Virus record (IMG/VR): IMGVR_UViG_3300019927_000017
Coordinates: 1-64,000 of that record
Origin: a virus
Strand: one strand, 5' to 3'
DNA: 64,000 nt
The notes under the pieces were generated by a model that was not told the origin of the DNA, did no database searches, and saw nothing but the letters and a program-made list of their open reading frames with translations. The translations under genes were made by a program, and so were the position numbers. Below, piece by piece: positions 166 through 63,832 of the stretch; the first letter of the stretch is position 1; each line of letters opens with the position of its first letter.

Positions 166-419
166 CAGTTTGCTCCGTAGTAGTCTGCCTTCGCTTCGAC
201 CCAATCGGCGAGGTCGTTGATGTCTGCTCCTTTCAGGAGATGCCGCCCGCCTCGGATGTCTTGGGGTGGCCCGGTGGGGCTTACCCCCACCGAGTTGCCT
301 TCGACGTGAACGAAGACCCCATCGTGTTCGAAGGTGGCGACCATCCCATCCTTCATCGCTCCGATAAGGCCGAGAAGTCGGTCGTGGCTGTCGGTTTCGC
401 CGAAGATGATGTCACTCAT
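165..419 (-). CDS. hypothetical acidic protein (84 aa)
   Basis: ORF track. Acidic composition, coupled to its neighbours. Confidence 0.55.
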   Translation of the reverse strand: MSDIIFGETDSHDRLLGLIGAMKDGMVATFEHDGVFVHVEGNSVGVSPTGPPQDIRGGRHLLKGADINDLADWVEAKADYYGAN

Positions 420-421
420 TG

Positions 422-634
422 TTAGATACCCGAAGGGATTCCGTCTCGGTCGAAGGCCGGTTCTGCTTCCGCTTCGTGTTGGTCGTTCGGCTTATCACCG
501 TCAGTCGGCTCCGGTTCGGAAACCGCGCCGTGGCGTCGTTCGAGAGTCTGGCCTGTCGTCCCGGCTCTTTGAGCCGTGTCTATCTCGTACTTCCAGAAAT
601 CGCCGTTGTTCGTGGGGTCTTCGGAGTTACTCAT
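422..634 (-). CDS. hypothetical protein (70 aa)
   Basis: ORF 422..646 trimmed to the ATG at 634 (MSNSEDP...). The 646 start is GTG. Confidence 0.5.
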   Translation of the reverse strand: MSNSEDPTNNGDFWKYEIDTAQRAGTTGQTLERRHGAVSEPEPTDGDKPNDQHEAEAEPAFDRDGIPSGI

Positions 635-767
635 CGTTGCCCTCACTTTGTGTGTCTTCGTCGGGGAGAAGGTCGCCGTACTTCGTCTTGCTTCGCTTCG
701 CGTCTCGCTTCGCTTTCTCTACGTCTTCGACCTCTTCGTCGCTGATGGCTTCCTCGAAGGTCGTCAT
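627..767 (-). CDS. small acidic protein (46 aa)
   Basis: Below the ORF-track cutoff. ATG overlaps the stop of 764..1003 and its stop overlaps the ATG at 634 (ATGAGTAA). Translation MTTFEEAISDEEVEDVEKAK... Confidence 0.4.
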   Translation of the reverse strand: MTTFEEAISDEEVEDVEKAKRDAKRSKTKYGDLLPDEDTQSEGNDE

Positions 768-1003
768 ACCATCTCCTCCTTCACGAACTGTTCGGGGCTT
801 CGGGGTTCGGTGGGGTCGAAGACGGCTCGCTCTGCTGGAGTCTTCACGACCGGCTCGACCTCTTTGTGGCGAAGCCTTCGATGCTCGCCACCATCGGCGT
901 GGGTTCCTGAAAACATCGGGTCGATGGTGTATTCAGGGTCTTCGTCGTCTCGATTATCGAGCGGTTCCACTCGGTAGCCTTCGTTGGTGTCGTAGCCTGT
1001 CAT
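764..1003 (-). CDS. hypothetical protein (79 aa)
   Basis: ORF track, acidic composition. Confidence 0.55.
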   Translation of the reverse strand: MTGYDTNEGYRVEPLDNRDDEDPEYTIDPMFSGTHADGGEHRRLRHKEVEPVVKTPAERAVFDPTEPRSPEQFVKEEMV

Positions 1004-1100
1004 TTCACTTCACCGCAAGTTAGCCGGTCGGTCGTGAACCGAAGGGGTCGAAAACCCGCCGGGCTAAGACTTCACTTCAAACGCTTCGAGTCTTTGCCCT

Positions 1101-2198: not shown

Positions 2199-2255
2199 CG
2201 TTGGGTTGTGTCCCGCCTCGTTAACGAGGAAGCGGCTCTCGTTCCCTGTTGTTAC

Positions 2256-2652
2256 TCGAAGGGAAGGGTCGAGTCCGGGGGTCGAAGGGCGTATAAATTC
2301 CCCTTCGACCCTAACCGGAGAGGCTATCTCTTGGCATCAGGTTGCGTGACTTCATCGCCTTAAGGGTTGGAAGTTGTCTCTCGACTTCCTCGTCAGCCTT
2401 CTTTGCTTCGAAGGCGAAGGCCGCATCGCTCCTTACAACGCTGGTCGAAGGAACTCTTCGACCTGAAACCCCGTTACGCCATTTGTCTTAGGAACTCATT
2501 ACCCGTAACTCCCTCTTCGACCGGAACCCCTCTCGGGGCCTTTGTCGAAGGCTTCAACGTCCGGTTTTCCGTGGCTGTCTTTGGCTCTGTCACGGTGTCA
2601 TCGTGACCCTCCTGAGTCGTTCGGTCTTCGTGGACTTTCAAGGGGTCGAAGG
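2256..2652. repeat. array of GGTCGAAGG / CCTTCGACC units, several forming inverted-repeat pairs
   Basis: GTCGAAGG at 2281, 2444, 2544 and 2645. CTTCGACC at 2303, 2456 and 2515. Related units at 2256 and 2406. Confidence 0.6.
2279..2311 (-). promoter_or_regulatory. 11-bp perfect inverted repeat flanking a TATAAAT element (candidate operator/promoter for gene 1101..2198)
   Basis: GGGTCGAAGGG-cgTATAAATtc-CCCTTCGACCC, about 95 nt upstream of the ATG at 2198. Confidence 0.4.
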
Positions 2653-3414
2653 GTGTGAACCCCCTGAATCATCACTTCGGTTCCGGCTCGTTGCCTTTCT
2701 ACCGCCACCCTTTTCGGTGGAAGGGTGGCTGGCGATGCCTGACCGAAGCCATCCGATTCACTCGAAGAGTTTCACGTACTGACTCCGAAGGTACTTAATG
2801 GGGCGTTCAGGACTGCCGTCCTGTAATCCCGCGATGTCCTTAGCATCATTAGGGGAACTCCCTAAGCGGATGTCACCTTCCGTCATCGGGTCGATGCTCA
2901 CCCCTTAAGGGTGAACTCGCCTCGGTGCGACTTCTTCCGAAGACCGCGACATTGATTAACAAACACGAAGGGTTTCGGGTCGAACTTGGCGAAGGGGCTT
3001 CGGGGGGAACTCCCCCGACTTCGCCTTTAGGTATTCGGCGGCTACTGACACATCCTCTCGTAAGAGAGGCGCACTTTAACCGTCCCGTTCTTATCCCCCC
3101 TTACGGGTTTGCCTTAAGGGCCTAACCTACCGAGGGGCATCCATTTGCCTGCCCCCTTAAGGGGAACTCCCTTAAGGGTGCAGATTGCATCGTGCGAGGG
3201 CTGTTAAAGCCCCCAAAGGCCCCCTCCTCCCCCTTTAATAAACGCGGGGAAGGAGAGTCGCCGGGAGACACACCATAACCGCGTGGGGGTGTGTGCCCCG
3301 AGCGAGCCTGCCGAGCGAACCTGTCATACACTCAGCCCCGACACCACATAAACCTGTCGATGTCAGGACGATATAGAGAACCGGCAGTAGAACACCGTCA
3401 GACTGTCGAAAACC

Positions 3415-3510
3415 GACGATTAGAGATGAATAGAAAAGATGATGATATACTAAATTTCCGGGAAAAATCTCGATACGAAAAAGAGTATTGTGGTATAAAG
3501 AACTGTCCAG
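3415..3510. other. AT-rich tract inside the long non-coding region (candidate DNA-unwinding element)
   Basis: Local sequence gattagagatgaatagaaaagatgatgatatactaaatttcc...aaaaagagtattgtggtataaag is clearly AT-rich in a GC-rich genome. Confidence 0.35.
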
Positions 3511-3834
3511 AGAAACGACGACTCAAGGCTGGAGACTGCTGTTTTGCCGACTTGAGCAAAATAGACCGCTATTTGCTTTTGGTGACGGTAAGATTTGCCG
3601 CCCGCAGAGGGATAAATCGGTGGTATTACCGACTAATAACGGCGATTGGCTCCTCTTCGCGCCCGCGTTAAACCAAAGGGTTCCCTTCGGGGTTAAAGGG
3701 TAGCCTCTCTTCGTTAACCTCTGCTGGGCCTTATCGGTGTAACCCCCGCCCGATTCCCTTCGGAAGGGAAACATAACCCTTAGCGGTTCGCTCGCGCGTG
3801 TTAATTCACGCATCGCTCGCCAATTCCAATTCGC

Positions 3835-3916
3835 GCGAAGCCTTCGGCTTTATCGCTCGGGCGAAGCCTTCGGCTTTTAAAAGCGTGCGAATTAATCGCG
3901 CGGGGTTAATCGCGCG
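3835..3916. repeat. two short direct-repeat pairs: GCGAAGCCTTCGGCTTT x2 and TTAATCGCGCG x2
   Basis: Copies at 3835/3861 and 3892/3906. Each GCGAAGCC-TTCG-GGCTT unit is itself a hairpin. Confidence 0.6.
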
Positions 3917-3964
3917 ACGTTAACGGCGCGTGCAGAAAGAGCCGGGGCGCGAGCGGCGGGCGCG

Positions 3965-4004
3965 AAAAAAAAAAGCCCCCCACCCCAACCCTGTAAAGGG
4001 TTGG
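3965..4004 (-). terminator. hairpin plus T10 run ending the minus-strand operon 6187->4037
   Basis: On the minus strand, CCAACCC-tttaca-GGGTTGG is followed by a G-rich spacer and TTTTTTTTTT (A10 at 3965-3974 on the plus strand). Confidence 0.55.
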
Positions 4005-4036
4005 AGTGAGGGGCCAGAGTCCTTCGGGATACGAAA

Positions 4037-4866: not shown

Positions 4867-5307
4867 TTAGATGTCCTCCTCGATGGCTTCGACTGCCTCT
4901 CTGACCTCTTGGTCAGAGGCCCCCTTCGGGGTATCGAACTCTTCGAAGGCTCCGATAAGGGTCGGAGTGTCGTTATCGACCAGTTCACAGAACTGGAACT
5001 GTCCTTCGGAGGGAACTCGGCAGAGTTCACCCATCTCGGCTTCCTCTGCCGTTGGCAGAGGGGGAAGGTCTTCGACCTGCTCTTCTAAATCGCTGATTAC
5101 ATCAGCGACCTTATCGGTGTCTTCCTCCACTTCTCCGAAGTGGGCTTCCTCTGCTCTTCGAGCCTGACCTTCGGCGGTGTCGGCATCTCCGATGCCGAAC
5201 CCTTCGAACCCAGCCTCTTCGAGGCTTGAAGGTGGCTCTTCGGTGAGGCTTCGGACTTCGTTGTTTTCGCTCTGTTCAACATCTTCGATGTTGGCTTCGT
5301 CGGTCAT
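4867..5307 (-). CDS. acidic hypothetical protein (146 aa)
   Basis: ORF track. GGGACACAACC box before the ATG. Contains DTDKVA. Confidence 0.65.
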   Translation of the reverse strand: MTDEANIEDVEQSENNEVRSLTEEPPSSLEEAGFEGFGIGDADTAEGQARRAEEAHFGEVEEDTDKVADVISDLEEQVEDLPPLPTAEEAEMGELCRVPSEGQFQFCELVDNDTPTLIGAFEEFDTPKGASDQEVREAVEAIEEDI

Positions 5308-7102: not shown

Positions 7103-7387
7103 GTGAACCGCCACCTGAAAAAGCGCGACGACACAACCTTTCCGACGTGGACTTCGGAGATTTCGAGCGACGAATCGCCGACCGTGCGGCTCGCGGGCCT
7201 TATCGCGGTCATCAAGGGCTGTGAAATCGACCAAATGCGACCTCTCGGCGAAAACATGGACTGTGACGCCCTCGACCGGCTACTTTCGGAGGAAAACCGC
7301 CCGATTTGGGTCACGTTCCAGCATGAAGGCTACGACATCACGGTTCAGAACTCTGGTGAAGTCGAAATCGTGGAAAGCATTACATAG
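7103..7387 (+). CDS. HalOD1-like small protein (start uncertain; GTG at 7103)
   Basis: SDESPTVRLAGLIAVIKGCE...MDCDALDRLL...VTFQHEGYDITVQNSGEVEIVE matches, from memory, the halobacterial output domain 1 pattern. Confidence 0.5.
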   Translation: MNRHLKKRDDTTFPTWTSEISSDESPTVRLAGLIAVIKGCEIDQMRPLGENMDCDALDRLLSEENRPIWVTFQHEGYDITVQNSGEVEIVESIT

Positions 7388-7591: not shown

Positions 7592-7599
7592 TATATAAA
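7592..7599 (+). promoter_or_regulatory. TATA-like element (TATATAAA) upstream of the late operon
   Basis: AT-rich box about 165 nt upstream of the terS ATG. It would give a leader containing repeat copy 1. Confidence 0.3.
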
Positions 7600-7707
7600 C
7601 TATTGTCCTTTCATTGTAGTGAGGAGCGTGGCATAATAGACAGTCACGCAAGGTTGTGTTCACCCTGCGGGGAAGTCTCCGTGGGGACAAGCCGTTTCGC
7701 TTTACCG

Positions 7708-7758
7708 CAGTACACCACAGCGACCTTATCGCTGTAAACAGGCGACGTTAACTATACT
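7708..7758 (+). repeat. leader repeat copy 1 (CAGTACACCxxAGCGACCTTATCGCTGTxAACA..AACTATACT)
   Basis: Near-identical copies at 31174 and 54438. This copy ends 5 nt before the terS ATG. Confidence 0.8.
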
Positions 7759-7762: not shown

Positions 7763-8542
7763 ATGGCGCTTGGCGAAGTAACCGGCGCAGATGAATCTGA
7801 AGTCGCCGAAATGGAGAAGGAGTATTTCTCCACTCCGCTGTACCAACAGCACGGTGTCCCGTTCGAGGTAGCATATTGCCTGAACGAAATCGGCAAGCAA
7901 CCCGAGGATTACGACGGCCCTGTTCGTTATTGTCAACGACGGGCCAAGAAGAAGGAAGACTACGACGGCCACCGCTTCGATAAGGCCGCCTACGGTTACT
8001 TCTGCCCGTTCCACGGCGGCGTGGGAGAGACAGGAGACGCGAGCAGACTTGACAACCCGCTGACGGCTGGCATCAAGCACGGCGCATACGCTGACGACGA
8101 ACATCTAAAAATGGACTTCAACGAAGAAGAGCAGAGCCTCTATGACTCTATCATGGAGGATTGGCCGGAAATCTACGACTGGCCCGACCGTTCGGAAGAC
8201 CCGGCACGATACCGGATTCTCCGACGTGTCGCTGTAAACGAAGTCCGCGCGATGCGCGAGGAAGACTATATTGACCAACACGAGGTCCATCAGGAACCCG
8301 TGTTTGACGAGCAGGGGGTCGAAGTCGGCCACAAGGAAGTCGAGAATCCGCTTTCGCGGGAGTACCGACTTCTGATGTCTGAGGTCACGAACCAGATGCG
8401 CGAACTGGGACTTACTCCCAAGGAGCGACAGAAGATGGACACGCTCGAATCTCAGGCAGACAAGGACGACAGCATCACTCGGGTCGCCGAAGACGCGCTC
8501 GACTCCGACGAGGAGTACGACCCGGAGCAGTTCGATGACTGA
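7763..8542 (+). CDS. terS: terminase small subunit (P27-like C-terminus)
   Basis: First gene of the structural operon, upstream of terL. ELGLTPKERQK motif as in P27-family small terminases. Confidence 0.6.
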   Translation: MALGEVTGADESEVAEMEKEYFSTPLYQQHGVPFEVAYCLNEIGKQPEDYDGPVRYCQRRAKKKEDYDGHRFDKAAYGYFCPFHGGVGETGDASRLDNPLTAGIKHGAYADDEHLKMDFNEEEQSLYDSIMEDWPEIYDWPDRSEDPARYRILRRVAVNEVRAMREEDYIDQHEVHQEPVFDEQGVEVGHKEVENPLSREYRLLMSEVTNQMRELGLTPKERQKMDTLESQADKDDSITRVAEDALDSDEEYDPEQFDD

Positions 8543-8998: not shown

Positions 8999-9184
8999 AT
9001 GGACCACCCCGATAAGCCCGCCGCTTTCTCACGAGCGTCGGCTGGGGAGGTTCACCACGAGCCGGAGCAAGTCATTGCGGTCGTCGTGACCGACGAAGAT
9101 GACGACCCAGCTGGGGTCTTGGAGAAGTGGAGCGGAGACGGCTGGATTTACGCGCCAGCGGAAGACCTCGTAGAACTCAACTAA
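8999..9184 (+). CDS. hypothetical protein (61 aa)
   Basis: ORF track. Its TAA overlaps the terL ATG (TAATG). Confidence 0.5.
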   Translation: MDHPDKPAAFSRASAGEVHHEPEQVIAVVVTDEDDDPAGVLEKWSGDGWIYAPAEDLVELN

Positions 9185-10899
9185 TGGACGAAGAACTGGC
9201 TGAAACAATCGCCGAGTCCGAAGGCGGCCTCAACGACGAGGATGCACTTCGGGAACGGTGGGACGGTCGGCCAGACCTCTTCATCGAGGATGTTTTTCGT
9301 GTTCGTGACCTGAACACGAAGACGGTCGAAGACCTCGAACTGACCGGCTATCAGCGTCAGTTTATCCACGCGATGTGGTACGGGGACGCTTCGACGCTTT
9401 CTGTACTTAAGGGCCGACGAACGGGGTACTCGTTCGTGGCCTGCCTGACGATTTTGGCGTACTGCCTGTTGAATCCGCACAGTTTCGTTGCGATTACAGG
9501 GCCGTCGAAGTCTCAGGCGAAGGACCGGATTGATGACATCTACGACCTGCTGAAGTGGTCGAAACTCAATCTGACCCGAGAGGGATGTCCGACTGACAAC
9601 ACCGACGAAATCGAACTGCCGAACGGCGCGACGATGATGGCGTTCGCGGGCAACCCGGACACCTCGCGTGGTGCTGACTCGGCTGACATCCTCTTCATTG
9701 ACGAGATGGCGTTCCTCGAAGATGAACAGGAGTCGATGAACGCTTTCGGGCCGTTCACGGCCCTCGGTGACGCAAGCACGATTCAGATTTCGACGCCGAA
9801 CACCTCGAACGACCTCTTCATGCAGGACATGGAGAACGGGTCGCCGAAGGGCGATAACGGCATCATCGCCATCGAACAGCCGTCCTTCAAGAACGCCGAG
9901 GAAATCAACGTAGAGCGTTCCCTCATCGAGCAGGGCGTCGAACCGGCCAATCCATATCAGAATATGGAGGAAGCCGAGAAGGCCCGCCAGCGTGACCCCG
10001 AGGGGTTCAAGCAGGAGTACCTGTGCAAGACCGTCTCCGACCGCTATCGGTTCTTTACCGAGGAGGGCATCGACCGGGCGGTCGAGCGCGGTCGGGCTGA
10101 CGGTCACGTTCACCATCCCGCCACGCACGCACGACTCGGCGGCAAGATGGTGATGGGCGTGGACATCGCCGCTGGTGGGAAGGACGACACCGCGATTTCC
10201 GTCTTCGAACACTACGGGCAAGACCGCCTTCTCCGCTTCCACACGGTTCTGGACGAGGAAGACCTCGATAAGGTCGGTGTGGGTGGGAAGCCTGAGAATC
10301 CGTCTGACATGGCGGCCTACATCGACTTCCTCGCCGACAACATGGGAGTCGATAAAGTCTACCTCGACAAGACCGGGGTCGGCGAAGGCTTCAACAACGA
10401 AGTCAACAAGGTGCTGGGCCGTCGGGCCGAGGGCTTCGACTTCGACAACAAGGAGAAAATCGCGGAGATGATGGGCGACTTCAACTACGCCCTTCACAAC
10501 GACCTTGTTACCCTCGTGCCGGGCGACGACGGCCTTATCGCGGCTCAACTGAAGGCCATCGTCAAGGAGAAGAACCACCGAACTTCGAAGCCGAAGTTCT
10601 CCGGCAAGGACAACGCCCCGAACGGGAAGGACGACCTCGCAATGGCGCTCGTCCTCGGTGCGTACCCGCCGAACTTCGACGCTGACCGGAACACGACTCC
10701 TGTTCAGCGTGATAACGTCTCCGGCTACCAAGACGAAGAGCCTGATGTCACGGAAGGCTCTCGCGGTGACGGTTTCGAAGCGATGCTCGGGACGAACTCC
10801 GAGTCTCGCGGCGAAACGGATGGCGACGACCACGTAGCAATAGGCACACAACCAGACACGGGCCGTAGCAGGCGTTACAACTCACGACACTCTCGATAA
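9184..10899 (+). CDS. terL: terminase large subunit
   Basis: Walker A-like KGRRTGYS, Walker B ILFIDEMAF, ISTPN coupling motif, nuclease-domain GVDIAAGGKDDTAISV. Trimmed to the ATG at 9184. Confidence 0.9.
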   Translation: MDEELAETIAESEGGLNDEDALRERWDGRPDLFIEDVFRVRDLNTKTVEDLELTGYQRQFIHAMWYGDASTLSVLKGRRTGYSFVACLTILAYCLLNPHSFVAITGPSKSQAKDRIDDIYDLLKWSKLNLTREGCPTDNTDEIELPNGATMMAFAGNPDTSRGADSADILFIDEMAFLEDEQESMNAFGPFTALGDASTIQISTPNTSNDLFMQDMENGSPKGDNGIIAIEQPSFKNAEEINVERSLIEQGVEPANPYQNMEEAEKARQRDPEGFKQEYLCKTVSDRYRFFTEEGIDRAVERGRADGHVHHPATHARLGGKMVMGVDIAAGGKDDTAISVFEHYGQDRLLRFHTVLDEEDLDKVGVGGKPENPSDMAAYIDFLADNMGVDKVYLDKTGVGEGFNNEVNKVLGRRAEGFDFDNKEKIAEMMGDFNYALHNDLVTLVPGDDGLIAAQLKAIVKEKNHRTSKPKFSGKDNAPNGKDDLAMALVLGAYPPNFDADRNTTPVQRDNVSGYQDEEPDVTEGSRGDGFEAMLGTNSESRGETDGDDHVAIGTQPDTGRSRRYNSRHSR

Positions 10900-12459: not shown

Positions 12460-12732
12460 ATGGACGATTCTGAAACAGAACAACTTGACGACATCCACGA
12501 GGAAATCCAAGGTTCTAACGCACAGTTAGGGGCAATCGCAGAGCGGACTCGGCAGATACAGGGTTCTCTCGAAGACATCAACGACGACGTTCAACAGAAC
12601 CAGCGAGACATCAACGACCTTCAGGGCAAGGTGAGGCGGAACACCGTCATCATCAACGGCGTGACAGTCGGCCTCGGGAGCGTCGTTCTGTGGGTTTCCG
12701 ACAAAATCTCCCGCATCAATCCGTTCGCATGA
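12460..12732 (+). CDS. coiled-coil protein with C-terminal transmembrane helix (90 aa)
   Basis: ORF track. C-terminal segment VIINGVTVGLGSVVLWV. Confidence 0.55.
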   Translation: MDDSETEQLDDIHEEIQGSNAQLGAIAERTRQIQGSLEDINDDVQQNQRDINDLQGKVRRNTVIINGVTVGLGSVVLWVSDKISRINPFA

Positions 12733-13451
12733 CCGAAACTACACTCAACATCGAAGAGACGCTGACTTTTAGCGCCTCTACCCCGGATGGTGACATCGAC
12801 TTCAGCCACTCGGAGTTCCAAGAACGGGTTGGTACAGGCTTCAACGAACACGGCGTTCGTGAGAACTACGACGATGACGGCAACCTCGAAAGCGTTGACG
12901 TTATCTTCGCCGCGATGGAGCCGGGACCGCCGGAAGACCGAAACGGCGTCCGAATCACCGAAGACTTCCTCGATAAGGTGGCCGGGAAGGAGTATGCGTC
13001 TCCGCCCCCGCACCTGAAAGACCACGAAGACAAGAACTCGTGGGCGAGAATCGGTGACGTTCGTGAAAAGTGGTTCTCCGACCGGCTGGAGAAGTTCTTC
13101 CTGATGACTCGGACTCCGAACATCTCGGAGTCTCAGAATCACAAGGAAGCAATAGCCCGATACACCCACGACCCGCCTGCTATCCGCGACGGGTCGCTTG
13201 GCTTCGGGAGCAACTACGAGGCCGTGATGAACGAAGCGGGAGAGCCTGAGATGCGCGACGGCAAGTTCCGTGAGTTCTCGACGGTCAATTTCCCCGGTGG
13301 CTATGATGAAGGCGGCGTCAATGCGGCCTTCGCTGAAGCCATCGAGGATGCTGATGCCGAGTTCGATGACCCGGCGGACGATGGCGATAAGTCCGGCGAG
13401 AACTCGGCGACGGAAGACTTCGCGGTAGACACCGACACAATCCAATTCTAA
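12729..13451 (+). CDS. prohead maturation protease (HK97-type, tentative)
   Basis: Position between portal and scaffold. REFSTVNFPGG resembles the E-x-S-L-V-x-x-PA motif. ATGA start at 12729. Confidence 0.55.
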   Translation: MTETTLNIEETLTFSASTPDGDIDFSHSEFQERVGTGFNEHGVRENYDDDGNLESVDVIFAAMEPGPPEDRNGVRITEDFLDKVAGKEYASPPPHLKDHEDKNSWARIGDVREKWFSDRLEKFFLMTRTPNISESQNHKEAIARYTHDPPAIRDGSLGFGSNYEAVMNEAGEPEMRDGKFREFSTVNFPGGYDEGGVNAAFAEAIEDADAEFDDPADDGDKSGENSATEDFAVDTDTIQF

Positions 13452-42076: not shown

Positions 42077-42077
42077 G

Positions 42078-50449: not shown

Positions 50450-50455
50450 CCTCAA

Positions 50456-53041: not shown

Positions 53042-53626
53042 ATGGCTAAGAAGACCAGCACCAAAACTAAAAAGCATAAGAATAACGAGAAAACTGTCAA
53101 GTGTCCCGCCGAAGGATGTGAAAAGGAAGTTCTCGCTCGTGGATTACATCTCCACGTCAGAAGGAGTAGCGGGAACGGTCACGGTGAACAAAATGAGATT
53201 CCAGACGACCTCGACCTCGATAACGCAGAGGAAGTCGGAACGCGAGAGGTCGAAATGAATTACCCCGAAGAGCGGGAGTCGGAGCAAGTCGCCCGGCTCT
53301 GTCCGTACTGCGAGCGTCCCTACCGAGGGAAGCACGGCGTCATGATTCACCTCGGTCAGGTCGCCGGTCGGAAGAATCATCCAGAAGATGCGCCGGAACG
53401 TCACGAACCCGACGACTTCGCCATCGTCCACGTTGACGAGAACGAGAACGTGGTCGAGGTAGTCGAGGAGCCGACCTCGATGCCTTCGACCGAACGTCGT
53501 CAGGAGCAGGAGGCCGAGGGCGGCTCTCTTGACGCTGACGAGGTTCGTGAATACATCGACGGCCTTCGGGAGCAAGGACTCGAAGAAGAGGCAGAGAGAG
53601 CCGAGCAGATGCTACTGAGCGATTGA
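53042..53626 (+). CDS. zinc-finger protein with basic N-terminus and acidic C-terminus
   Basis: CPAEGCEKEVLARGLHLHV and CPYCERPYRGKHGVMIHL (C2H2-like). ATG at 53042. Confidence 0.65.
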   Translation: MAKKTSTKTKKHKNNEKTVKCPAEGCEKEVLARGLHLHVRRSSGNGHGEQNEIPDDLDLDNAEEVGTREVEMNYPEERESEQVARLCPYCERPYRGKHGVMIHLGQVAGRKNHPEDAPERHEPDDFAIVHVDENENVVEVVEEPTSMPSTERRQEQEAEGGSLDADEVREYIDGLREQGLEEEAERAEQMLLSD

Positions 53627-54157
53627 CCACTCGTCTTCGAAGTACGACTGAGTGTATTTGAGTTCTGTTCCTCGGCGGTTGTCTTCTCGAATCATGTCAG
53701 CGAACTCCATCAGTTCGTAGAATCCCTCTTTGTTCCGGTGGAGTCCATCCTCCAGCCGAGGGACTATCTGTTCGAGCATGATGACGACCGGCTCGTACTT
53801 CGTCACGAGGTACGGAACCATCGGTTCGAGGAACCGCCGGATGCTGTCGGGGTTCTTGATGTGTAGTTCGTAACTTTGGCTGTCTCTGTCGGGGCCGTGG
53901 GACTTCTCGGAGATGCTGGTTCTGACTCCCAGTTCGTCGCAGTACGCCATCAGTTTCCCCATGATGGGGTCGCTGTCGTCCATCGGTCGGATGATTCTGA
54001 CGACTGCTTGGTACTGGTAGCCGATGCTGTACTTGTCGTTCTTCGAGACGTGGACAGTCACCGTGCCTACTGCATCGAGGACTCCGGCGAGGTGTGCTAT
54101 CTCGTTTTCTTCCACATCGGGGTTATCTTCGCCCCGAGGTTGTAGTTGTTGTGCCAT
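53612..54157 (-). CDS. LAGLIDADG-family homing endonuclease (single-motif)
   Basis: IAHLAGVLDAVGTVTV motif near the N-terminus. About 180 aa, free-standing. Its 3' end overlaps the convergent gene by 15 nt. Confidence 0.65.
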   Translation of the reverse strand: MAQQLQPRGEDNPDVEENEIAHLAGVLDAVGTVTVHVSKNDKYSIGYQYQAVVRIIRPMDDSDPIMGKLMAYCDELGVRTSISEKSHGPDRDSQSYELHIKNPDSIRRFLEPMVPYLVTKYEPVVIMLEQIVPRLEDGLHRNKEGFYELMEFADMIREDNRRGTELKYTQSYFEDEWSIAQ

Positions 54158-54369: not shown

Positions 54370-54437
54370 CGAGGGCAGGTTTCTCCTCGGATGTTCACTT
54401 CGGTAGTTCACCCTACGGGAGTAACAACTGTACTATA

Positions 54438-54494
54438 CAGCAGTACAACAAGCGACCTTATCGCTGTTAACATCACTTGTTTACTCTGTATAGT
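54438..54494 (+). repeat. leader repeat copy 3
   Basis: CAGCAGTACAACAAGCGACCTTATCGCTGTTAACA... flanked by the inverted repeat ACTATACAG/CTGTATAGT. Confidence 0.8.
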
Positions 54495-54564: not shown

Positions 54565-55050
54565 ATGGAACATACAGAAGAACGCGAGCCGCCCGATGTC
54601 ATGACCAGCGACACGAATAACGCAACGAAAGTTCAACCGAAGGACGCTCCACCTCACAAGCGAGAGAAGTTCCGACGCTTCAAAGCCTACAATCGCGGGA
54701 CGTGGAACGGCCCGAAGCGGGAAAACAAGGAGGTAATCCGCCGTCAGGATGACCTTCACCGCTTCGACTCCATCTCTTCAGCCCTGAATCTGAACGCTCG
54801 TCAGAAGAGTCAGGGCCGGAAGATGCTCGATAACATCGAAGTCACGAAGAAAGGCATCGGTGTTGATGTCGTCATCTTCGGCATCTGTGCGATTGTAGCG
54901 AACGCAGATGTCCCTGACGGGAGCCGGTACTATCCACATCCCGAAGCGACCGGCGATGATGACTTCGAGAAGGTCGCCGATTCGCTCGGCTTCGACCGCC
55001 ACGACCAGATTTCAGCCATCGAAAAAGTCCGAGCGAAGTGTAACCTCTGA
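54565..55050 (+). CDS. hypothetical protein, possible cyclin/TFIIB-like fold
   Basis: ISSALNLNARQKSQGRKMLDNI...GVDVVIFGICAIVAN resembles a TFB core repeat. Weak evidence. Confidence 0.55.
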   Translation: MEHTEEREPPDVMTSDTNNATKVQPKDAPPHKREKFRRFKAYNRGTWNGPKRENKEVIRRQDDLHRFDSISSALNLNARQKSQGRKMLDNIEVTKKGIGVDVVIFGICAIVANADVPDGSRYYPHPEATGDDDFEKVADSLGFDRHDQISAIEKVRAKCNL

Positions 55051-55780: not shown

Positions 55781-56938
55781 ATGGAACTCCCAATCGGCCT
55801 TGAGAACTGTGACGTTAAATTAAACGGCGACCTCGACCCCGGCAGAAGCATCACCGTCATCCCACAATCGCACGACGACGTGCTGGATGACAAGCAACTC
55901 ATCGACTACAAGGCCCAGCGAATCGACTTTTTGTCATGGCTGTTGAACGTCGGGAAGCACCCCGACCGCGCCGAAGGCTACGCTGAGTACACCGTGTATT
56001 CAACGGCCTACCGGACAGCCCGCTTCGACAAGTGGCTGTGGCAAGAGCGCGGCGAGTACGTCTACCCACCGTCCAAGCAGGACGCCGACGACTTTCTCGA
56101 CTATCTGGCCTACTCCGATAAGGGCCAGACGGAGAAAGGGAAGTTACAAGAAGGCATCCAGCACCTCGGCAAGTGGCTTCAACACGAGCGAGGCGGCGAC
56201 GAGTGGGAGTTCGACTTCAAGTTCGACGGAACGGGCGGGAATCACCAGCCTCAAGACTTCCTGACGTACAGCGAACGGCGTGCCATCCGTCAGGAGGCCC
56301 TGAACCACGGGGAGATACCCGACTACAACTCCCTCTCAGTCGAAGAACGCAACGGCTGGAAGCACCACATCGCCAACATCCTCGGGAAGGAATACGACGA
56401 CGTGGAGCCTGAAGACTTCGACCGAGTGGATGGCTGGAAGATTCCGTCTCTCGTTTGGGTCAGCCTCGATGCTGGCCTTCGACCGGACGAAGTGAGCAAC
56501 GTCCGAGAGTCGTGGATTGACACCGAGAACGCCGTCCTGCGTATCCCGAAGGCCGAGTCGTCCAAGAACGAAGGCAACTGGACGGTCAGCCTCACGGAAC
56601 GCACAGCGACGGCGGTCGAACGGTGGAAGGAAGAGCGGGATATGTACGACCGATACCACAACTCCCATCTGTTGTGGTTGACGAATCGCGGGAATCCCTA
56701 CGGTTCGAAGTCTCTCCGCCGTCTTCTCCACAAACTGTGCGAGGGAGCAGGCATCGAGACGGCGAACCGCCAGATGTCGTGGTACACAATCCGTCACTCG
56801 GTGGGGACGCTGATGACGAAGGAGCGTGACCTCGCCGCTACGAAGTCACAACTCCGCCACAAAGCCCCGAAGACCACGATGAAGTACGACCAAGTGCCGG
56901 TTGACGACCGGCGAGATGCGCTGGACAACATGGGATAA
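55781..56938 (+). CDS. int: tyrosine recombinase / phage integrase
   Basis: GLRPDEVSNVR, TIRHSVGTLM, LRHKAPKTTMKYDQV (R..H-x-x-R..Y pattern). Confidence 0.92.
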   Translation: MELPIGLENCDVKLNGDLDPGRSITVIPQSHDDVLDDKQLIDYKAQRIDFLSWLLNVGKHPDRAEGYAEYTVYSTAYRTARFDKWLWQERGEYVYPPSKQDADDFLDYLAYSDKGQTEKGKLQEGIQHLGKWLQHERGGDEWEFDFKFDGTGGNHQPQDFLTYSERRAIRQEALNHGEIPDYNSLSVEERNGWKHHIANILGKEYDDVEPEDFDRVDGWKIPSLVWVSLDAGLRPDEVSNVRESWIDTENAVLRIPKAESSKNEGNWTVSLTERTATAVERWKEERDMYDRYHNSHLLWLTNRGNPYGSKSLRRLLHKLCEGAGIETANRQMSWYTIRHSVGTLMTKERDLAATKSQLRHKAPKTTMKYDQVPVDDRRDALDNMG

Positions 56939-57192: not shown

Positions 57193-57340
57193 CTACCTTC
57201 TCCTTTGCACAATCCTGACACGCGAACTTCACGTTTGGGTCTACGGGATTGGGGTCGGTGGCTACTCTCCAACCGTCTTCAGTTTGCTCGATGGGAGTGC
57301 CGTTGAGTCGAAGCATCCCACAGATTTCGCAGTCAGCCAT
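57182..57340 (-). CDS. tiny zinc-ribbon ORF (52 aa)
   Basis: MADCEICGM...FACQDCAKE. Coupled at both ends. Confidence 0.4.
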   Translation of the reverse strand: MADCEICGMLRLNGTPIEQTEDGWRVATDPNPVDPNVKFACQDCAKEKVDGK

Positions 57341-57770
57341 GCATCGGGTCCACTACCGGGGCGTAGGCCCGAAGCATCTCTTCGAGCGTTTCTTGAACTT
57401 CTTCGAGGTCGAAGCGGTCGGGGCTGTGGGCTTGGTCGAAGACCGCATCGACCAGTTCTTCAGCGCCAGCATCGACCAGCGCGAAGTCTCTCGCTTCGAG
57501 GTCGGCCACCACGTCGGGGTTGTTCCGCAGGACTCGAAGTGCCATCTGTTCGAGGTAACTGTCTTCGGGCTTCGCCATCGCCATGACGTAGAAGCCGTTG
57601 CGAGTCTCCCGCATCTTCTTCGCGGCGACCTTATCGCTGTCATAATCCTCTCGGAACTGCCGCTTCGCCGCTCCGATTGCCCCGTTCGGAGTGGCCGACA
57701 GCCCCTCTTCGATGAAGTACACTTGAACGTCGGTCTGTGCTTGGTACACGTTGTCGAGGTCGATTGTCAT
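57333..57770 (-). CDS. hypothetical protein (145 aa)
   Basis: ORF track. Contains DSDKVA encoded by the 16-mer. Confidence 0.6.
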   Translation of the reverse strand: MTIDLDNVYQAQTDVQVYFIEEGLSATPNGAIGAAKRQFREDYDSDKVAAKKMRETRNGFYVMAMAKPEDSYLEQMALRVLRNNPDVVADLEARDFALVDAGAEELVDAVFDQAHSPDRFDLEEVQETLEEMLRAYAPVVDPMHG

Positions 57771-60338: not shown

Positions 60339-60474
60339 CGCTGACTGCCTCCACTTCGGCGATGTGGTCGGGGTCGATGCCGAGTTCGTCGGCGACGGCC
60401 TGTCTTCGGCCCTCGAACCCGTGGTGTTCGCCTTCGACTTCGACGCCTACCTCTGCTTCGAGCAGTTCACTCAT
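60331..60474 (-). CDS. small acidic ORF (47 aa)
   Basis: MSELLEAEVGVEVEGEHHGFEG... 8-nt overlaps at both ends. Confidence 0.4.
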   Translation of the reverse strand: MSELLEAEVGVEVEGEHHGFEGRRQAVADELGIDPDHIAEVEAVSDD

Positions 60475-61798
60475 TGGAACCACCGTCCGTCATCGCCTCG
60501 GCGTCGTCGTCGCCAGAGACTTCAGCGATAAGGCTCGTGCGGAGTTCTTCGTTGCGAGACTCGAACTCGTCGGCCTTGTCTTTCACCGATTGGGTGAACT
60601 CCTCGATGTTGGCGTGAGCCTTCTCGCCTTCGAGGTTCTGCTGTTCGCCCTCGGTCTGCGAAGCCATCCGCTCTCGGTGCTGTCGGTGAACGTTCCCGAT
60701 GACCTGCGAGGGGTTCATCACCATGTCGTTCGCCGCCTCGATGTACTCCTGAGCCGTCGAAGTGTTCTCCCCGCCCTGATAATGGTGGGTGAGAGCGTAG
60801 GTCGCTCCGTCCCACATCGCCGTCATGTCCGGGGTGAACACGTTGTCAGCCCGCTGTCGGGCGTGGCTTGCCGCCTCTCGGGAGAGGTACGTCGGGAAGC
60901 CAGCCAGTTCGTAGAAGGCTCGGATGTCGTCGTCGTGGTCGAACGGGCTGGCGAAGTCCATCTCCAGCGTATCGACTTCGATGTCTTCGGCCAGTTCGAT
61001 GAGTTCGGCCAGCCGGTTCGTCATCAGTTCCATCTCTTCCAGCACGTCAGTCACCTCGTCTTCGAGGTCAACTTCGCCGACGTGTCGGATGGTCTTCTTC
61101 TCGGTGATGGAGCGGATGGAGTTGTCGCACCGGGTGTCCTGTGCGAAGCCCTCGAAGTAGAGGGCGGTGTCGCCGAAGAAGTCGTACCCGGTTCGGACAC
61201 CGAGGACGATGGGGTCACGGCCATCGTCGTCGTTCGAGTAGTCGATTTGGAAGGCGTCGAAGAGAACGTCCATGTGGACTTCACCGCCCTCCTTGTACTG
61301 CCGAATCTCTCCGAAGATGTCGTCGCCGTAGCCTTCGTCGCGGATGGCTTCTTCCAGCGGTTCGTAGGCGGTCAGCGGGTTGACGATGGAGTACGTCTTG
61401 GTCGGGACGTGCCACAGAGCATCGTCCACCTGTTCGGTGTCGTCATCGTCAGACTGGAACCACGAGCGGAGTTTGTCTGGCGAGTAGACCGACTGGAAGC
61501 GGTCAGTCTCCACGTAAACGGTGTCGGAACTCGCTCGGGTCGCCTCTGCTCCTTCTGGAAGCAGGTCGTTGAGGGCCGACACGTCTACCTTCTGCGCGAT
61601 GTTCTCGGGAACCTTCCACGCCAGTTCTCCGGCTTCGGCCTGTTCGAGGTCACGAATCGCCGTGGCGAGCGAAGTCTGCGGCGGGTCGTCGGGGTCGATG
61701 CCCGCGATGCCTGCCGCGCTGTCGCCCATCTCGGCGTTGTTGTGCGAAGTCAGTCCAGCGAACGTCGTCGTCTCGGTTGGGGTGTTGCTTCGTCGCAT
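60467..61798 (-). CDS. DUF932-like protein (phage/plasmid-associated family, tentative)
   Basis: LGVRTGYDFFGDTALYFEGFAQDTRCDNSI resembles the DUF932 core. The ATG at 61798 is preceded by GGGACACAACC. Confidence 0.65.
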   Translation of the reverse strand: MRRSNTPTETTTFAGLTSHNNAEMGDSAAGIAGIDPDDPPQTSLATAIRDLEQAEAGELAWKVPENIAQKVDVSALNDLLPEGAEATRASSDTVYVETDRFQSVYSPDKLRSWFQSDDDDTEQVDDALWHVPTKTYSIVNPLTAYEPLEEAIRDEGYGDDIFGEIRQYKEGGEVHMDVLFDAFQIDYSNDDDGRDPIVLGVRTGYDFFGDTALYFEGFAQDTRCDNSIRSITEKKTIRHVGEVDLEDEVTDVLEEMELMTNRLAELIELAEDIEVDTLEMDFASPFDHDDDIRAFYELAGFPTYLSREAASHARQRADNVFTPDMTAMWDGATYALTHHYQGGENTSTAQEYIEAANDMVMNPSQVIGNVHRQHRERMASQTEGEQQNLEGEKAHANIEEFTQSVKDKADEFESRNEELRTSLIAEVSGDDDAEAMTDGGSNE

Positions 61799-61881: not shown

Positions 61882-61912
61882 TAAGACTCTACTCCTGAAG
61901 AGTTAAGTCTTA
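61882..61912. promoter_or_regulatory. inverted repeat TAAGACT...AGTCTTA overlapping the stop of 61910..62350
   Basis: TAAGACTctactcctgaagagttaAGTCTTA. Confidence 0.4.
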
Positions 61913-62350
61913 CCGTTGTTGCTTCAGGTACTCCTTCTCCATCGACTTGTACTGGTTCCACGGAACGGTCTTCACATCACCGTTGTTGCGGAACGCTACG
62001 GACATCTCGATGATTCTGCCTCGACTGTCTTCTTCAGAACAGTCTCGACAGGGAGCCACTTCGTTCTGTGTGAAGATGATAAGGCCGACGAAGGAGCCGG
62101 GAAGGGCGGCCTTGTGGACTCCACGCTCGATGGGATAACCCGTCTCCTTTTTCACGAACGTCGTTTCGAACTCACCGGGAACGTGGTCCCGGTAATCGTG
62201 TCCGTTCTCTTCACAGACATCGTACTCTTCGTCGTCCCCCTCGGCGACCTTATCGCTGTCACCATCACGGTTGCCACAACTCAGTCCAGCGAAGACGACT
62301 GCCGCCCCGAGGAGCAGGGTAGCGACCAGACCGAAGACGACCTCACTCAT
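61910..62350 (-). CDS. exported/membrane-anchored protein (N-terminal hydrophobic segment then Cys)
   Basis: MSEVVFGLVATLLLGAAVVFAGLSCG... Contains DSDKVA encoded by the 16-mer. Confidence 0.6.
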   Translation of the reverse strand: MSEVVFGLVATLLLGAAVVFAGLSCGNRDGDSDKVAEGDDEEYDVCEENGHDYRDHVPGEFETTFVKKETGYPIERGVHKAALPGSFVGLIIFTQNEVAPCRDCSEEDSRGRIIEMSVAFRNNGDVKTVPWNQYKSMEKEYLKQQR

Positions 62351-62907
62351 TGGCCCATCACCGCCAGCGCCTCTTCCTCTTCGACTCCCTCACTTCCTTC
62401 CATCAGCCGCTCTTCCTGATGGCTCCCTTCGTAGTCGTCAGCACTCTCCGCCTCGATGAAGGACATCTGAGCGATTGCCATGTCGGTCGGGATGGTGACT
62501 CGTTCGACCGAGGTTGGAACCTTCAGCAGTCCCTCGCCGATGCCTTCGTAGCCTTGGTCCCACAGCGCCGAGGTGAGGTGAAGGCCACACCGCATCAGCC
62601 GGGAACGGGGGTAGACCCGACCGACGTAACCGTCGGGAATTTCGACTTTCTCCCCGTAGACTACCGGGTAGACCCCCGGAACGATGGAGTAGACTTCGAC
62701 TCCCTCTTCGTGAATCGAGTCTACGGGCTGTATCGGCGTCCGGTTCGGCTTCTCGTAGTCGTCTTCGAAGAAGTGAGCCTGACCGGAAGTTCGGTACATC
62801 TCTTGGATGGTCAGGTCAACCCCGTTGGGTTGGATGTGTTCGTCGGGAACGTCGCCGTCGTTGAGGTGCTGTGCCACGAAGTCGCCGGTTGCGATTGCTG
62901 GTGTCAT
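62347..62907 (-). CDS. dUTPase / dCTP-deaminase-like protein (second copy of the superfamily)
   Basis: IQPNGVDLTI, YPRSRLMRCGLHLTSALWDQGYEGIGEGLL. Confidence 0.7.
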   Translation of the reverse strand: MTPAIATGDFVAQHLNDGDVPDEHIQPNGVDLTIQEMYRTSGQAHFFEDDYEKPNRTPIQPVDSIHEEGVEVYSIVPGVYPVVYGEKVEIPDGYVGRVYPRSRLMRCGLHLTSALWDQGYEGIGEGLLKVPTSVERVTIPTDMAIAQMSFIEAESADDYEGSHQEERLMEGSEGVEEEEALAVMGQ

Positions 62908-62913
62908 GTTGGG

Positions 62914-63174
62914 TTAGGCGTCGATGATGTCTGCGTCGAGGTTGACGAGACGATGCCGGGGAACGTAGAGCGAAAGGAACTCCATTTCTTCTCCTTCTTC
63001 GTTCTCGAAGGTTTCGTGAACGAGAACGTCACCGTCTGCGTCGATGTTCAGTTCGGTTCCTTCACCGTTGTCGGTGTAGACTCGTTCTTCTTCCTGTTCA
63101 CCCTCTGCTGTTTCGAACGTGATGGTGTTCTTGACGAAAGTCATGCTTCTGCTCCGTACTGCGATTTCAGCCAC
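62914..63174 (-). CDS. hypothetical acidic protein (86 aa)
   Basis: ORF track. Confidence 0.55.
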   Translation of the reverse strand: MAEIAVRSRSMTFVKNTITFETAEGEQEEERVYTDNGEGTELNIDADGDVLVHETFENEEGEEMEFLSLYVPRHRLVNLDADIIDA

Positions 63175-63581
63175 TCGTCATACGCCGGATACTCGTCTTC
63201 GAAGCGGTCTTGATAGTCGTCGTTCAGGTTCTCGATGGTGTCCAGTTCGTCAGAAGACCATCGCCCCGAATCGAGCGCCGCCTGTCGGTCGTGAAGGTGA
63301 GGCCAGCCCGTCACGACCACTCGGTATCCTTTCTTGTGAAAGCCTACGATGATGTAGTAGGCTACTCCTTTGCCCCACTCCTTACGGAAGCAGGCACAGC
63401 CGTCGCCGTTGTCCCGTAAGTCACCGTTGCGGATGCACTCCTCCACTACCTCGTCGGTCAGAAACCTCTCGGGTTCTTTGAACCGCTGGATGAAGTGGCG
63501 GAGCGGGCAGTACAACCCCGGTGTCTGTGGGTAGTCGTACTCCCTGAAGTCTCTACCCCGGTCGATGGGGAGAGTCTTCAT
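63141..63581 (-). CDS. hypothetical protein (146 aa), faint DUF4258/toxin-like pattern
   Basis: Trimmed to the ATG at 63581 (ATGA coupling). LRHFIQRF...EVVEECIRNG...YIIVGF...VVVTGW. Confidence 0.55.
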   Translation of the reverse strand: MKTLPIDRGRDFREYDYPQTPGLYCPLRHFIQRFKEPERFLTDEVVEECIRNGDLRDNGDGCACFRKEWGKGVAYYIIVGFHKKGYRVVVTGWPHLHDRQAALDSGRWSSDELDTIENLNDDYQDRFEDEYPAYDEWLKSQYGAEA

Positions 63582-63832
63582 GTTGGCACAACGGTAGCGT
63601 CCGGGTCGAGCATGGCCCGTCCGATGAGGAAGCGGGCCGTCTCGAACCCCTTGCCGTTGGGGGCCTCGTACTGGTCGCCGTCGATAAGCCGGTCGGGAGA
63701 GTCTGCATATCGGATTTCCGCCGCTGTCGGAACCCTCGTAAGTTCCGTGTTTGGGTTGTTGGCGGGGTCGGAGTTGTCGATATGAACTGCTTGCCGCGTG
63801 TCGTAGAACATATCGAGGTGACTCACCGCCAT
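63578..63832 (-). CDS. hypothetical protein (84 aa)
   Basis: Trimmed to the ATG at 63832 (TGATG coupling). Confidence 0.5.
   Translation of the reverse strand: MAVSHLDMFYDTRQAVHIDNSDPANNPNTELTRVPTAAEIRYADSPDRLIDGDQYEAPNGKGFETARFLIGRAMLDPDATVVPT

Follow-up and report, generated by a model that had tools for sequence, protein, structure and literature searches.

A non-palindromic eight-base word in an uncultured relative of haloarchaeal tailed viruses, and its variants in related lineages

The stretch of DNA analysed here, referred to as the window, comprises positions 1 to 64,000 of the IMG/VR virus record IMGVR_UViG_3300019927_000017, and our subject is a non-palindromic 8-mer, CCTTATCG (CGATAAGG on the opposite strand), which recurs throughout it. 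The window has a G+C content of 58%, and the orientation of its gene blocks tracks A/T skew. Our own codon-model gene calls predicted 96 open reading frames (ORFs), covering 85% of the window. A structural module on the plus strand contains terS (7763–8542), terL (9184–10899) and the portal gene and extends up to approximately 30 kb, while a replication module on the minus strand (31.8–51.8 kb) encodes RtcB, PolB, a PD-(D/E)XK nuclease and a Mre11/SbcD-like exonuclease. Elsewhere in the window are a tyrosine integrase, an ERCC4 nuclease, two dCTP-deaminase-like genes and two tRNAs. Given the integrase ORF, the virus is probably temperate. Its TerL is 44% identical to those of HRTV-5 and other Hafunaviridae, with matching gene order. 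No close relative was found among deposited phage genomes, and the uncultured relatives present in IMG/VR have TerL identities of 48–97%.

The 7-mer CTTATCG/CGATAAG occurs 53 times in the window, 28 times on the plus strand and 25 times on the minus strand. This agrees with an initial annotation, made by reading the sequence, which had found at least 27 and at least 23 copies respectively. The 8-mer CCTTATCG/CGATAAGG is present in 40 copies (the annotation had put this at about 37), 23 on the plus and 17 on the minus strand, compared to 1.36 ± 1.24 in dinucleotide-preserving shuffles, and it tops the over-represented 8-mers of the window. Thirty-four of the copies are in genes and six are intergenic. 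The exact 16-mer GCGACCTTATCGCTGT occurs on the plus strand at 7720, 31190, 40584, 54452, 57625 and 62244, all as previously listed; three of these copies are intergenic and three fall within minus-strand ORFs that are indeed unrelated. The possibility that ORFs carrying the 17-mer GCGACCTTATCGSTGTC are paralogues was rejected, because their likeness is confined to approximately 14 residues around the word. This 17-mer has 14 matches with at most two mismatches, of which 13 hold CCTTATCG and one has the core CCTTCTCG; the number of about 19 suggested earlier for the extended form was somewhat high. Separately, 49 nt centred on the motif at 1495–1543 and 62220–62268 are 88% identical in two unrelated ORFs (D-x-D-[ST]-D-K-V-A-E-x-D-D-E-E), a likeness that may result from short-patch conversion or from convergent acidic low-complexity sequence.

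The copies are described here by position and strand, together with the residues that they encode. Related viruses are designated by L numbers; those with CCTTATCG are called same-dialect relatives, and those with a different word, discussed below, other-dialect relatives. Three of the intergenic copies lie within related repeats a, b and c, at 7724–7731 (with the terS ATG 32 nt further on), 31194–31201 and 54456–54463, all on the plus strand. The other three are at 3729–3736 (+; gap 2199–4036), 19409–19416 (+; between ORFs 18862–19398 and 19469–19957) and 50643–50650 (−; extended form, gap 50328–50743). In the genes upstream of terS, Leu-Ile is encoded at 362–369 (−; ORF 165–419(−), sense CCTTATCG), 4953–4960 (−; ORF 4867–5307(−), kept in L030) and 7198–7205 (+; HalOD1-domain ORF 7103–7387(+)). 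The extended 17-mer is read as D-T-D-K-V-A at 1523–1530 (+; ORF 1101–2198(−), sense CGATAAGG), and gives Asp-Lys at 5109–5116 (+; ORF 4867–5307(−), kept in L028 and L030).

Within the structural module, Asp-Lys is encoded at 7978–7985 (−; terS, kept in L028, L030 and L032, with different residues in other-dialect relatives), 10266–10273 (−; terL), 12971–12978 (−; ORF 12729–13451(+), identical in 6/6 same-dialect relatives, with K-K, G-K or K-N in other dialects), 15682–15689 (−; ORF 15518–15994(+)), 25649–25656 (−; ORF 25392–27125(+)) and 28056–28063 (−; ORF 27784–29115(+)). The fifth of these forms an inverted pair, 18 nt apart, with 25631–25638 (+) in the same ORF. The remaining copies in this module are at 10533–10540 (+; terL, CTT-ATC, where L031 has CTG-ATC and hence GATC), 13644–13651 (+; ORF 13453–13911(+)), 17028–17035 (+; ORF 16979–17509(+), TTA-TCG encoding Leu-Ser), 19915–19922 (−; ORF 19469–19957(+)), 22045–22052 (+; ORF 20273–22759(+), Leu-Ile) and 27768–27775 (+), at the 3′ end of ORF 27133–27780(+).

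In the replication module, the RtcB gene (32573–33958(−)) has a Leu-Ile copy at 32644–32651 (−), which is kept in L007, and an Asp-Lys copy at 33640–33647 (+), where L007 reads GAG-AAG. An Asp-Lys copy follows at 34804–34811 (+; ORF 34679–35125(−)). PolB (35126–37843(−)) contains an Asp-Lys copy at 35596–35603 (+), kept in L007, and an inverted pair 30 nt apart, made up of 37636–37643 (−; Leu-Ile) and 37666–37673 (+; extended, D-A-D-K-V-A). Extended copies are found at 39065–39072 (−; ORF 38874–39263(−), Leu-Ile) and 40467–40474 (−; PD-(D/E)XK nuclease ORF 39522–40520(−), TTA-TCG), and an exact 17-mer at 40588–40595 (+; ORF 40517–40885(−), D-S-D-K-V-A). ORF 45841–47043(−) holds three copies, at 46290–46297 (+; Asp-Lys), 46657–46664 (−; TTA-TCG) and 47028–47035 (+; Asp-Lys). 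Beyond this module are copies at 56116–56123 (−; integrase ORF 55781–56938(+), Asp-Lys) and 60526–60533 (−; ORF 60467–61798(−), Leu-Ile), and exact 17-mers read as D-S-D-K-V-A at 57629–57636 (+; ORF 57333–57770(−)) and 62248–62255 (+; ORF 61910–62350(−)).

Inside genes, the word sits in reading frames that avoid a TAA stop. Sense CGATAAG is always framed xxC-GAT-AAG (22/22), while sense CTTATCG is framed CTT-ATC in 16 cases, TTA-TCG in five and otherwise in one. The codons that carry it are each used in a minority of cases (GAT makes up 17% of Asp codons, and CTT 16% and TTA 2% of Leu codons), in agreement with the accommodation by A/T-ending codons that had been noticed from the sequence. The 34 in-gene copies compare with 4.8 ± 2.0 in a within-gene synonymous shuffle that keeps all dipeptides, with 3.1 in a whole-codon shuffle, and with 3.6 ± 1.8 in a synonymous null that also keeps the codon-junction dinucleotides. 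Under the junction-preserving null, sense CGATAAGG is found 19 times against 1.9 expected and sense CCTTATCG 15 times against 1.7, or approximately ten-fold each. Enrichment of both sense orientations points to a cause in the duplex DNA rather than in translation. Neither CCTTATCG nor its variant words are enriched in 50-kb megaplasmid samples of Haloferax, Halorubrum and Haloarcula, which may not be the host's. These three samples and the junction-preserving null rule out a generic haloarchaeal codon-pair effect. The initial annotation had named a codon-shuffled, dipeptide-preserving null and unrelated haloarchaeal DNA as the comparisons on which its observation might fail; with the protein-preserving nulls exceeded and no generic haloarchaeal enrichment, it came through both.

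The word is also conserved in place. In the same-dialect relatives L028, L030, L041, L032, L033 and L036, all 8 bases of the CCTTATCG site match at 24 of 38 aligned positions, compared to a background 8-mer identity of approximately 17% (range 11–22%), and the intragenic sites are thus held by purifying selection on the DNA. The identity of motif-encoded D-K is 70% in same-dialect relatives, against 62% for the flanking residues, and 28% in other-dialect relatives, against 56% for the flanks. As D-K falls below its flanks only in other-dialect relatives, the proteins have changed to carry the word. A clear example is the terL site at 10266: the window shares D-K with L028 and L029 alone, R-A or H-A being found in five other relatives and N-A or A-A in two more. 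The gain of D-K at this site therefore took several base changes, for example from CGT-GCG to GAT-AAG. The view that selection acts on the DNA rather than on the protein is upheld by the ten-fold enrichment in both orientations, the conservation of sites and the lineage-specific Asp-Lys replacements, and viral proteins have been measurably reshaped to hold a DNA signal.

Related viruses that lack CCTTATCG have words of their own. In these relatives a one-base variant is the top word, or one of the top three, over the synonymous null. CCTTCTCG occurs 31 times against 7.9 expected in the L035/L038 contig, CCTCATCG 24 times against 8.7 in L040 and 12 against 2.6 in L037, CCTTCCCG 8 times against 1.3 in L067, CCTCGATG 18 times against 2.3 in L059, and CCTCGATG/CATCGAGG 57 times against 10.6 in 43 kb of coding sequence of HRTV-5 (L042, NC_021320.1 1–50000). 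Each of these is enriched in both sense orientations. CCTCATCG is also the dialect of L060 and L073. In the L035/L038 lineage, 4 of 15 sites orthologous to those of the window read exactly CCTTCTCG. Three lineages show their own word or a near match at the position orthologous to 13644, where L035 has CCTTCTCG, L037 tCTCATCG and L031 CTGATCG, and at the position orthologous to 19915 L035 has CGAGAAGG, which is its own dialect. A degenerate window motif, CCTTMTCG, was considered and dropped: CCTTCTCG occurs in the window 19 times against 9 under the simple null, but against 13.7 under the junction-preserving null.

Further members of the group were sought in several ways. An RtcB search of genome contigs gave no matches, while a TerL-alignment search of the same kind of data gave distant proviruses with weak signals and one mis-binned contig. 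The latter, L073 (NZ_JBDNGD010000196.1), is a 61-kb contig labelled as a Halomonas metagenome-assembled genome. Its TerL belongs to this halovirus family (46% identity), GATC and CTAG are both absent, and its dialect is CCTCATCG. The contig probably comes from a haloarchaeal virus and was binned with a bacterium. A 16-mer scan of IMG/VR returned mostly chance single matches and one true relative. We came across no account in the literature of words over-represented in these viruses, the HF1-group paper covering avoided palindromes only, and a literature search for CCTTATCG itself returned primer noise only.

One way to explain the word without a function would be as a by-product of codon usage, dipeptides and the purging of GATC and other palindromes, for instance if CTG-ATC was forced to CTT-ATC. 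Short palindromes are almost entirely missing from the window: GATC is absent (Markov expectation 345), as is CTAG (92), AGCT occurs twice (178), and 45 of the 64 six-base palindromes are absent. Palindrome avoidance has been published for HF1-group viruses (PMC7230728). In the first relatives that were examined, the motif and the loss of GATC coincided, and three Leu-Ile sites align with CTG-ATC in the GATC-rich L031. A null was therefore made by synonymous swaps in which GATC, CTAG and the 45 absent 6-bp palindromes were barred. It raises the in-gene expectation from approximately 4.8 to approximately 7, and gives 13.3 ± 2.6 copies for the whole window, including the 6 fixed intergenic copies, against 40 observed. 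The Asp-Lys class (19 copies) is not derived from GATC, and host-type megaplasmid DNA has no enrichment. Moreover, dialect and palindrome avoidance are separate: L039 and L081 keep GATC and have CCTTATCG, L040 has neither GATC, CTAG and AGCT nor CCTTATCG, and HRTV-5 is without GATC and has a different word. A scar of GATC purging is ruled out as the full cause by the orthologue alignments, by these decoupled genomes (L039, L040, L081 and HRTV-5) and by the constrained null, and is kept for a few Leu-Ile sites. We consider it very improbable that the word as a whole is such a by-product. As a separate observation, TTCGAA occurs 64 times in the window and is absent from HF1-group viruses (PMC7230728), a contrast which suggests a different host restriction landscape.

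The immediate neighbours of the word were also counted. CGACAAGG (C-GAC-AAG-G), the synonymous neighbour with the preferred Asp codon, is found 0 times in all window ORFs against 8.8 expected under the junction-preserving null, while GAC-AAG in other contexts occurs 22 times. CCTTTTCG is also low in the window ORFs, at 1 against 6.5. Other one-mismatch neighbours of CCTTATCG, taken together, are not depleted (59 observed against 64 expected).

A second explanation without function would be a molecular drive, in which a lineage-specific mismatch-repair or short-patch conversion system, similar to Vsr/Dcm, turns near-cognates into the word and restores mutants. Very-short-patch repair in Escherichia coli reportedly raises one word and lowers its one-base neighbours (Bhagwat and McClelland, 1992). 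A drive of this kind would explain why both strands are equally enriched, within genes and outside them, why existing copies are conserved, why orthologous sites switch together by one base once the specificity has changed, and why the one-transition neighbour CGACAAGG is lost. It does not predict that other one-mismatch neighbours escape depletion, nor multi-base gains such as the one at 10266, nor the even spacing and alternation of copies and the fixed place next to an A/T-rich box upstream of terS that are described below. The window, which covers part of the genome, yielded neither a Vsr-like nor a methyltransferase gene. The comparison with very-short-patch repair fails on the same points, that is, the lack of such an enzyme here, the even spacing and the promoter placement, and we regard a drive as improbable.

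The copies are arranged along the window in a regular manner. Neighbouring copies differ in orientation in 29 of 39 pairs (permutation P=0.001), and gaps between copies on the same strand are under-dispersed (coefficient of variation (CV) 0.57 and 0.39; P=0.004 and 0.0001), such that copies are evenly spaced per strand, at approximately 2.8–3.8 kb. For comparison, 20 other frequent non-palindromic 8-mers have gap CVs of 0.64–2.25, and in 19 of the 20 the strand alternation has z≤0.7; the sole exception that alternates overlaps the extended motif. Most other frequent 8-mers cluster by strand along gene blocks. In other dialect lineages, no frequent word is more mixed between strands or more evenly spaced than the lineage's own, although this is not significant on these short loci. 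There is no orientation skew along the window, as the plus and minus copies are interleaved, with no switch point and no polarity to either end. Relative to the genes, the in-gene copies show no bias (19 sense CGATAAGG and 15 sense CCTTATCG).

This arrangement bears on the suggestion that the word is a Chi-like mark of self, read by a viral or host nuclease, helicase or recombination machine, which would halt or modulate degradation of viral DNA while unmarked host DNA is destroyed or left unprotected. Regular sites in both orientations would guard the DNA on both sides of a break, wherever it occurs. In favour of this, the non-palindromic 8-mer does not follow gene direction, and is even per strand and alternating; it is lineage-specific and not enriched in the sampled haloarchaeal DNA, and the window encodes a Mre11/SbcD-like exonuclease, two PD-(D/E)XK nucleases and an ERCC4 nuclease. 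Chi and the FtsK-orienting polar sequences (KOPS) are over-represented, species-specific, non-palindromic 5–8-mers, which are read by a translocating machine and are strongly skewed with the direction of replication. CCTTATCG resembles them in being short, over-represented, lineage-specific and non-palindromic, but differs in having no skew and no single orientation along either arm. The earlier suggestion of a polar Chi/KOPS-like element is therefore not sustained, given the lack of skew along the window and the 19 to 15 split relative to genes. A Chi-like mark would leave unexplained the word next to an A/T-rich box upstream of terS and the word in promoter-like repeats. To our knowledge, archaea have no Chi-recognising machine of RecBCD or AddAB type, and we know of no reader of RecBCD, AddAB or FtsK type for haloarchaeal viruses. 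A Chi-like role is in our view unlikely.

Strand-specific regular spacing could also be expected of a replication or architectural site, where the word would be a template site for a primase or initiator, or an anchor at regular intervals on each strand for a DNA-condensing protein. The lineage specificity is in keeping with this, and the window contains a PolB module and a weakly primase-like ORF (45841–47043), although the assignment of the latter is weak (E=3.5e-5, partial profile). Against it, copies lie much further apart than the length of archaeal Okazaki fragments, the strand switch expected around an origin is missing, and the promoter-proximal copy is not explained. We judge such a site to be quite improbable.

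The intergenic repeats place the word in a particular context. Repeats a, b and c are 57–66 bp in length and share TACAGCAGTACACC-ACAGCGACCTTATCGCTGT-TAACA...AACTATAC, with CCTTATCG directly upstream of an A/T-rich box (TGTAAACA or TGTTAACA). Repeat a (7701–7757, plus strand) has ACAGCGACCTTATCGCTGT, with 7-bp inverted arms, TGTAAACA and AACTATAC, and ends 6 nt before the terS ATG at 7763. Repeat b (31169–31227, plus strand) has the same core with TGTTAACA and AACTATAC, and is found just after a hairpin and T-run that close the plus-strand structural module. Repeat c (54428–54493, plus strand) again has the same core, with TGTTAACA, and occupies the divergent gap between ORF 53612–54115(−) and ORF 54565–55050(+). 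All three head plus-strand units, namely terS and the structural module, the unit after the structural-module terminator, and the integrase unit, and they look like promoter or operator copies.

Intergenic repeats (IRs) of HF2, of class I and II and approximately 30–60 bp in length, are proven promoters with BRE/TATA and a conserved initiator region, and their words are confined to the IRs and occur nowhere else in the HF2 genome (PMC8707807). Repeats a–c are similar in being intergenic blocks that head putative transcription units in a related virus family, but differ in that 34 of the 40 core words are inside genes. Of the HF2 IR core words, CTTTAAGT has no matches in the window, and CCCTTTAC has three, which is chance level, none of them at the repeats. 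Judged on these matches, repeats a–c are not homologous to the HF2 repeats.

The position upstream of terS is shared between lineages. In at least seven lineages, the lineage's own word precedes the terS ATG by 24–41 nt and adjoins an A/T-rich box. The words are CCTTCTCG-CTGTTAAACA in L035, CCTCATCG-GTTTAC in L037, CCTCATCG in L060 and L073, and aCTCGATG in HRTV-5 and L059, the HRTV-5 copy being approximately 26 nt upstream of terS. The terS-upstream word ranks first in gene enrichment among the 16 CCTYNYCG words in 7 of 10 lineages. The same region contains a unique conserved element, TATATAAAC..CCTTTCATTGTAGTGAGGAG (in full TATATAAACTATTGTCCTTTCATTGTAGTGAGGAG), at 7592–7626 on the plus strand and approximately 140 nt upstream of terS. 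It is present almost base for base in L028, L030, L032 and L037 and partly in L035, and may serve as a late promoter, or as a signal for packaging or of a terminus. ORF 7103–7387(+), which immediately precedes the terS control region, encodes a small HalOD1-domain protein ('halobacterial output domain 1', E=4e-15).

The repeats are also where a hairpin is most apparent. The initial annotation had described a 5-bp hairpin, AGCGA-CCTTA-TCGCT, in the extended form of the motif, and this could in principle act as RNA in transcripts or as a single strand in replication intermediates. Repeats a, b and c can form stems of 5–7 bp, and four coding or intergenic copies have 4-bp stems. However, 20 of the 40 copies have no inverted-repeat arm around CCTTA and 13 have arms of 1–3 bp, leaving 7 with at least 4 bp, and the hairpin was therefore rejected as a defining feature of CCTTATCG. 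In half of the extended copies a G replaces the C after TCG, which breaks the stem, and the terS-upstream dialect copies of L035 and L037 do not keep it. What is conserved is the loop and one arm, not the pairing. A hairpin could have a role in repeats a, b and c alone, and as an explanation of the word in general it is extremely improbable.

We therefore return to the class of explanation first proposed for the motif, a recognition site for a DNA-binding factor, which is still the best. Symmetry between orientations, conservation, the cost in amino acids, variants common to dispersed and promoter-proximal copies, and independence of the restriction profile are all as expected for a site at which a protein binds duplex DNA. 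The same features suggest that the reader travels with the virus, and a regulator of transcription is favoured by the location of copies beside an A/T-rich box where units begin. Our preferred reading, which we hold tentatively and at somewhat short of an even chance, is that CCTTATCG is the core of the recognition site for a lineage-specific, most likely virus-encoded factor that binds double-stranded DNA, and that the sites make up a genome-wide operator network. A protein would thus bind CCTTATCG, it would be viral, and its output would be transcriptional. One regulator would occupy the promoter-proximal sites in the repeats and also dozens of intragenic sites, and 34 copies would have been written into genes by way of rare codons (GAT-AAG, CTT-ATC and TTA-TCG) and amino-acid replacements. 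The bound intragenic sites would control or block transcription on both strands, as the stoperators of mycobacteriophages do.

In original work on the phage L5, most stoperators were reportedly located in short gaps between genes. In Cluster A mycobacteriophages (L5, Bxb1 and others), stoperators are 13 bp in length and mostly in one orientation with respect to transcription (PMC6550527, PMC9283540), and their motif varies between phage lineages in step with the repressor (PMC6550527). The likeness to CCTTATCG lies in a short asymmetric site with tens of copies across the genome of a tailed and probably temperate virus, one copy being at a key (here putative) promoter, and in a consensus that differs between lineages. 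The differences are the 8-bp core, the 34 of 40 copies in genes, their 19 to 15 split and alternating orientation, and an archaeal host with a promoter of TBP/TFB type; also, no repressor was identified here. By analogy, our best reading is that CCTTATCG works like stoperators but is not a member of the stoperator family.

Several points weigh against an operator network. The intragenic copies have no A/T-rich box, and their role in transcription is conjecture. The 19 to 15 split is not that of stoperators. The alternation and spacing were found after looking, and are significant only in the window's own lineage. The terS-upstream words were picked by eye, and in 3 of 10 lineages the terS-upstream word differs from the enriched word. 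The TATATAAAC element may be the true late promoter, in which case repeat a would lie in the leader. Finally, approximately 60 ORFs were scanned against Pfam and PHROGs, and neither a classical repressor nor a TFB or methyltransferase came up.

The only lead to a reader is a candidate binder encoded at 53612–54115 (minus strand), divergent from repeat c. It is similar to I-MsoI and I-CreI (E=2e-10 to PDB 3fd2) and is a free-standing LAGLIDADG protein, whose motif is LAGVLDAVG, with Val in place of the catalytic Asp. One homologue was found, in L081 (42% identity), with LAGAFDVGG. As a derivative of such enzymes, the protein probably binds DNA without cutting it, and any binding to CCTTATCG would be hypothetical.

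The variant words allow a wider proposal, which we make with rather more reserve. HF1/HF2-like viruses, including HRTV-5, may each carry a private 8-bp word, which differs by 1–2 bases between lineages, occurs approximately once per 1–2 kb on both strands, and would be read by a co-evolving virus factor. The words would then be a self-recognition code for silencing or for protection of the chromosome. What has been described so far in the HF1 group is limited to the avoidance of palindromes and to promoter repeats (PMC7230728, PMC8707807). There is a possible parallel in the DNA uptake sequences and uptake signal sequences (DUS/USS) of cellular organisms. These non-palindromic 9–12-mers occur within and outside genes, in either orientation; the choice of codons and residues makes room for them, and their dialects match a co-evolving receptor. 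Such dialects have reportedly been described in Neisseriaceae and Pasteurellaceae by Frye et al. in 2013. CCTTATCG is similarly a dispersed word in either orientation, with lineage dialects that differ by one to few bases and with accommodation through both codons and residues. DUS/USS are however cellular, have thousands of copies and spread through biased uptake and recombination, whereas CCTTATCG is viral, with 40 copies, a promoter-proximal copy and regular spacing. We use DUS/USS as an analogy for the evolution of dialects, and do not claim membership.

We know of nothing of this kind in archaeal viruses, whose gene regulation and genome defence are poorly understood. If the proposal is true, the words would be an archaeal-virus counterpart of stoperators or of Chi and DUS dialects. 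CCTTATCG could be used as bait for the reader protein, and the dialects provide a natural series of specificity swaps. The culturable HRTV-5 and HF viruses appear to have a word of their own (CCTCGATG), and the hypothesis is therefore testable in existing virus–host systems.

Some other features of the window are recorded here. At approximately 31640–31800 on the plus strand, downstream of repeat b, there is a stretch that resembles a tRNA: its T-arm, CCGGGTTCGAATCCCGG, is canonical, its 5′ part looks like a D-arm, and the two are approximately 90 nt apart. Neither ARAGORN nor Rfam called a tRNA or non-coding RNA there. It could be an intron-containing tRNA, the virus encoding RtcB, or a partial tRNA that serves as attP. 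The two dCTP-deaminase/dUTPase-like proteins are encoded by separate genes of the same virus, at 38240–38737 and 62347–62907, both on the minus strand, and ORF 41675–42097 has a faint match to a 'nucleotide modification associated' domain. Editing of the nucleotide pool or modification of DNA by this virus is possible.

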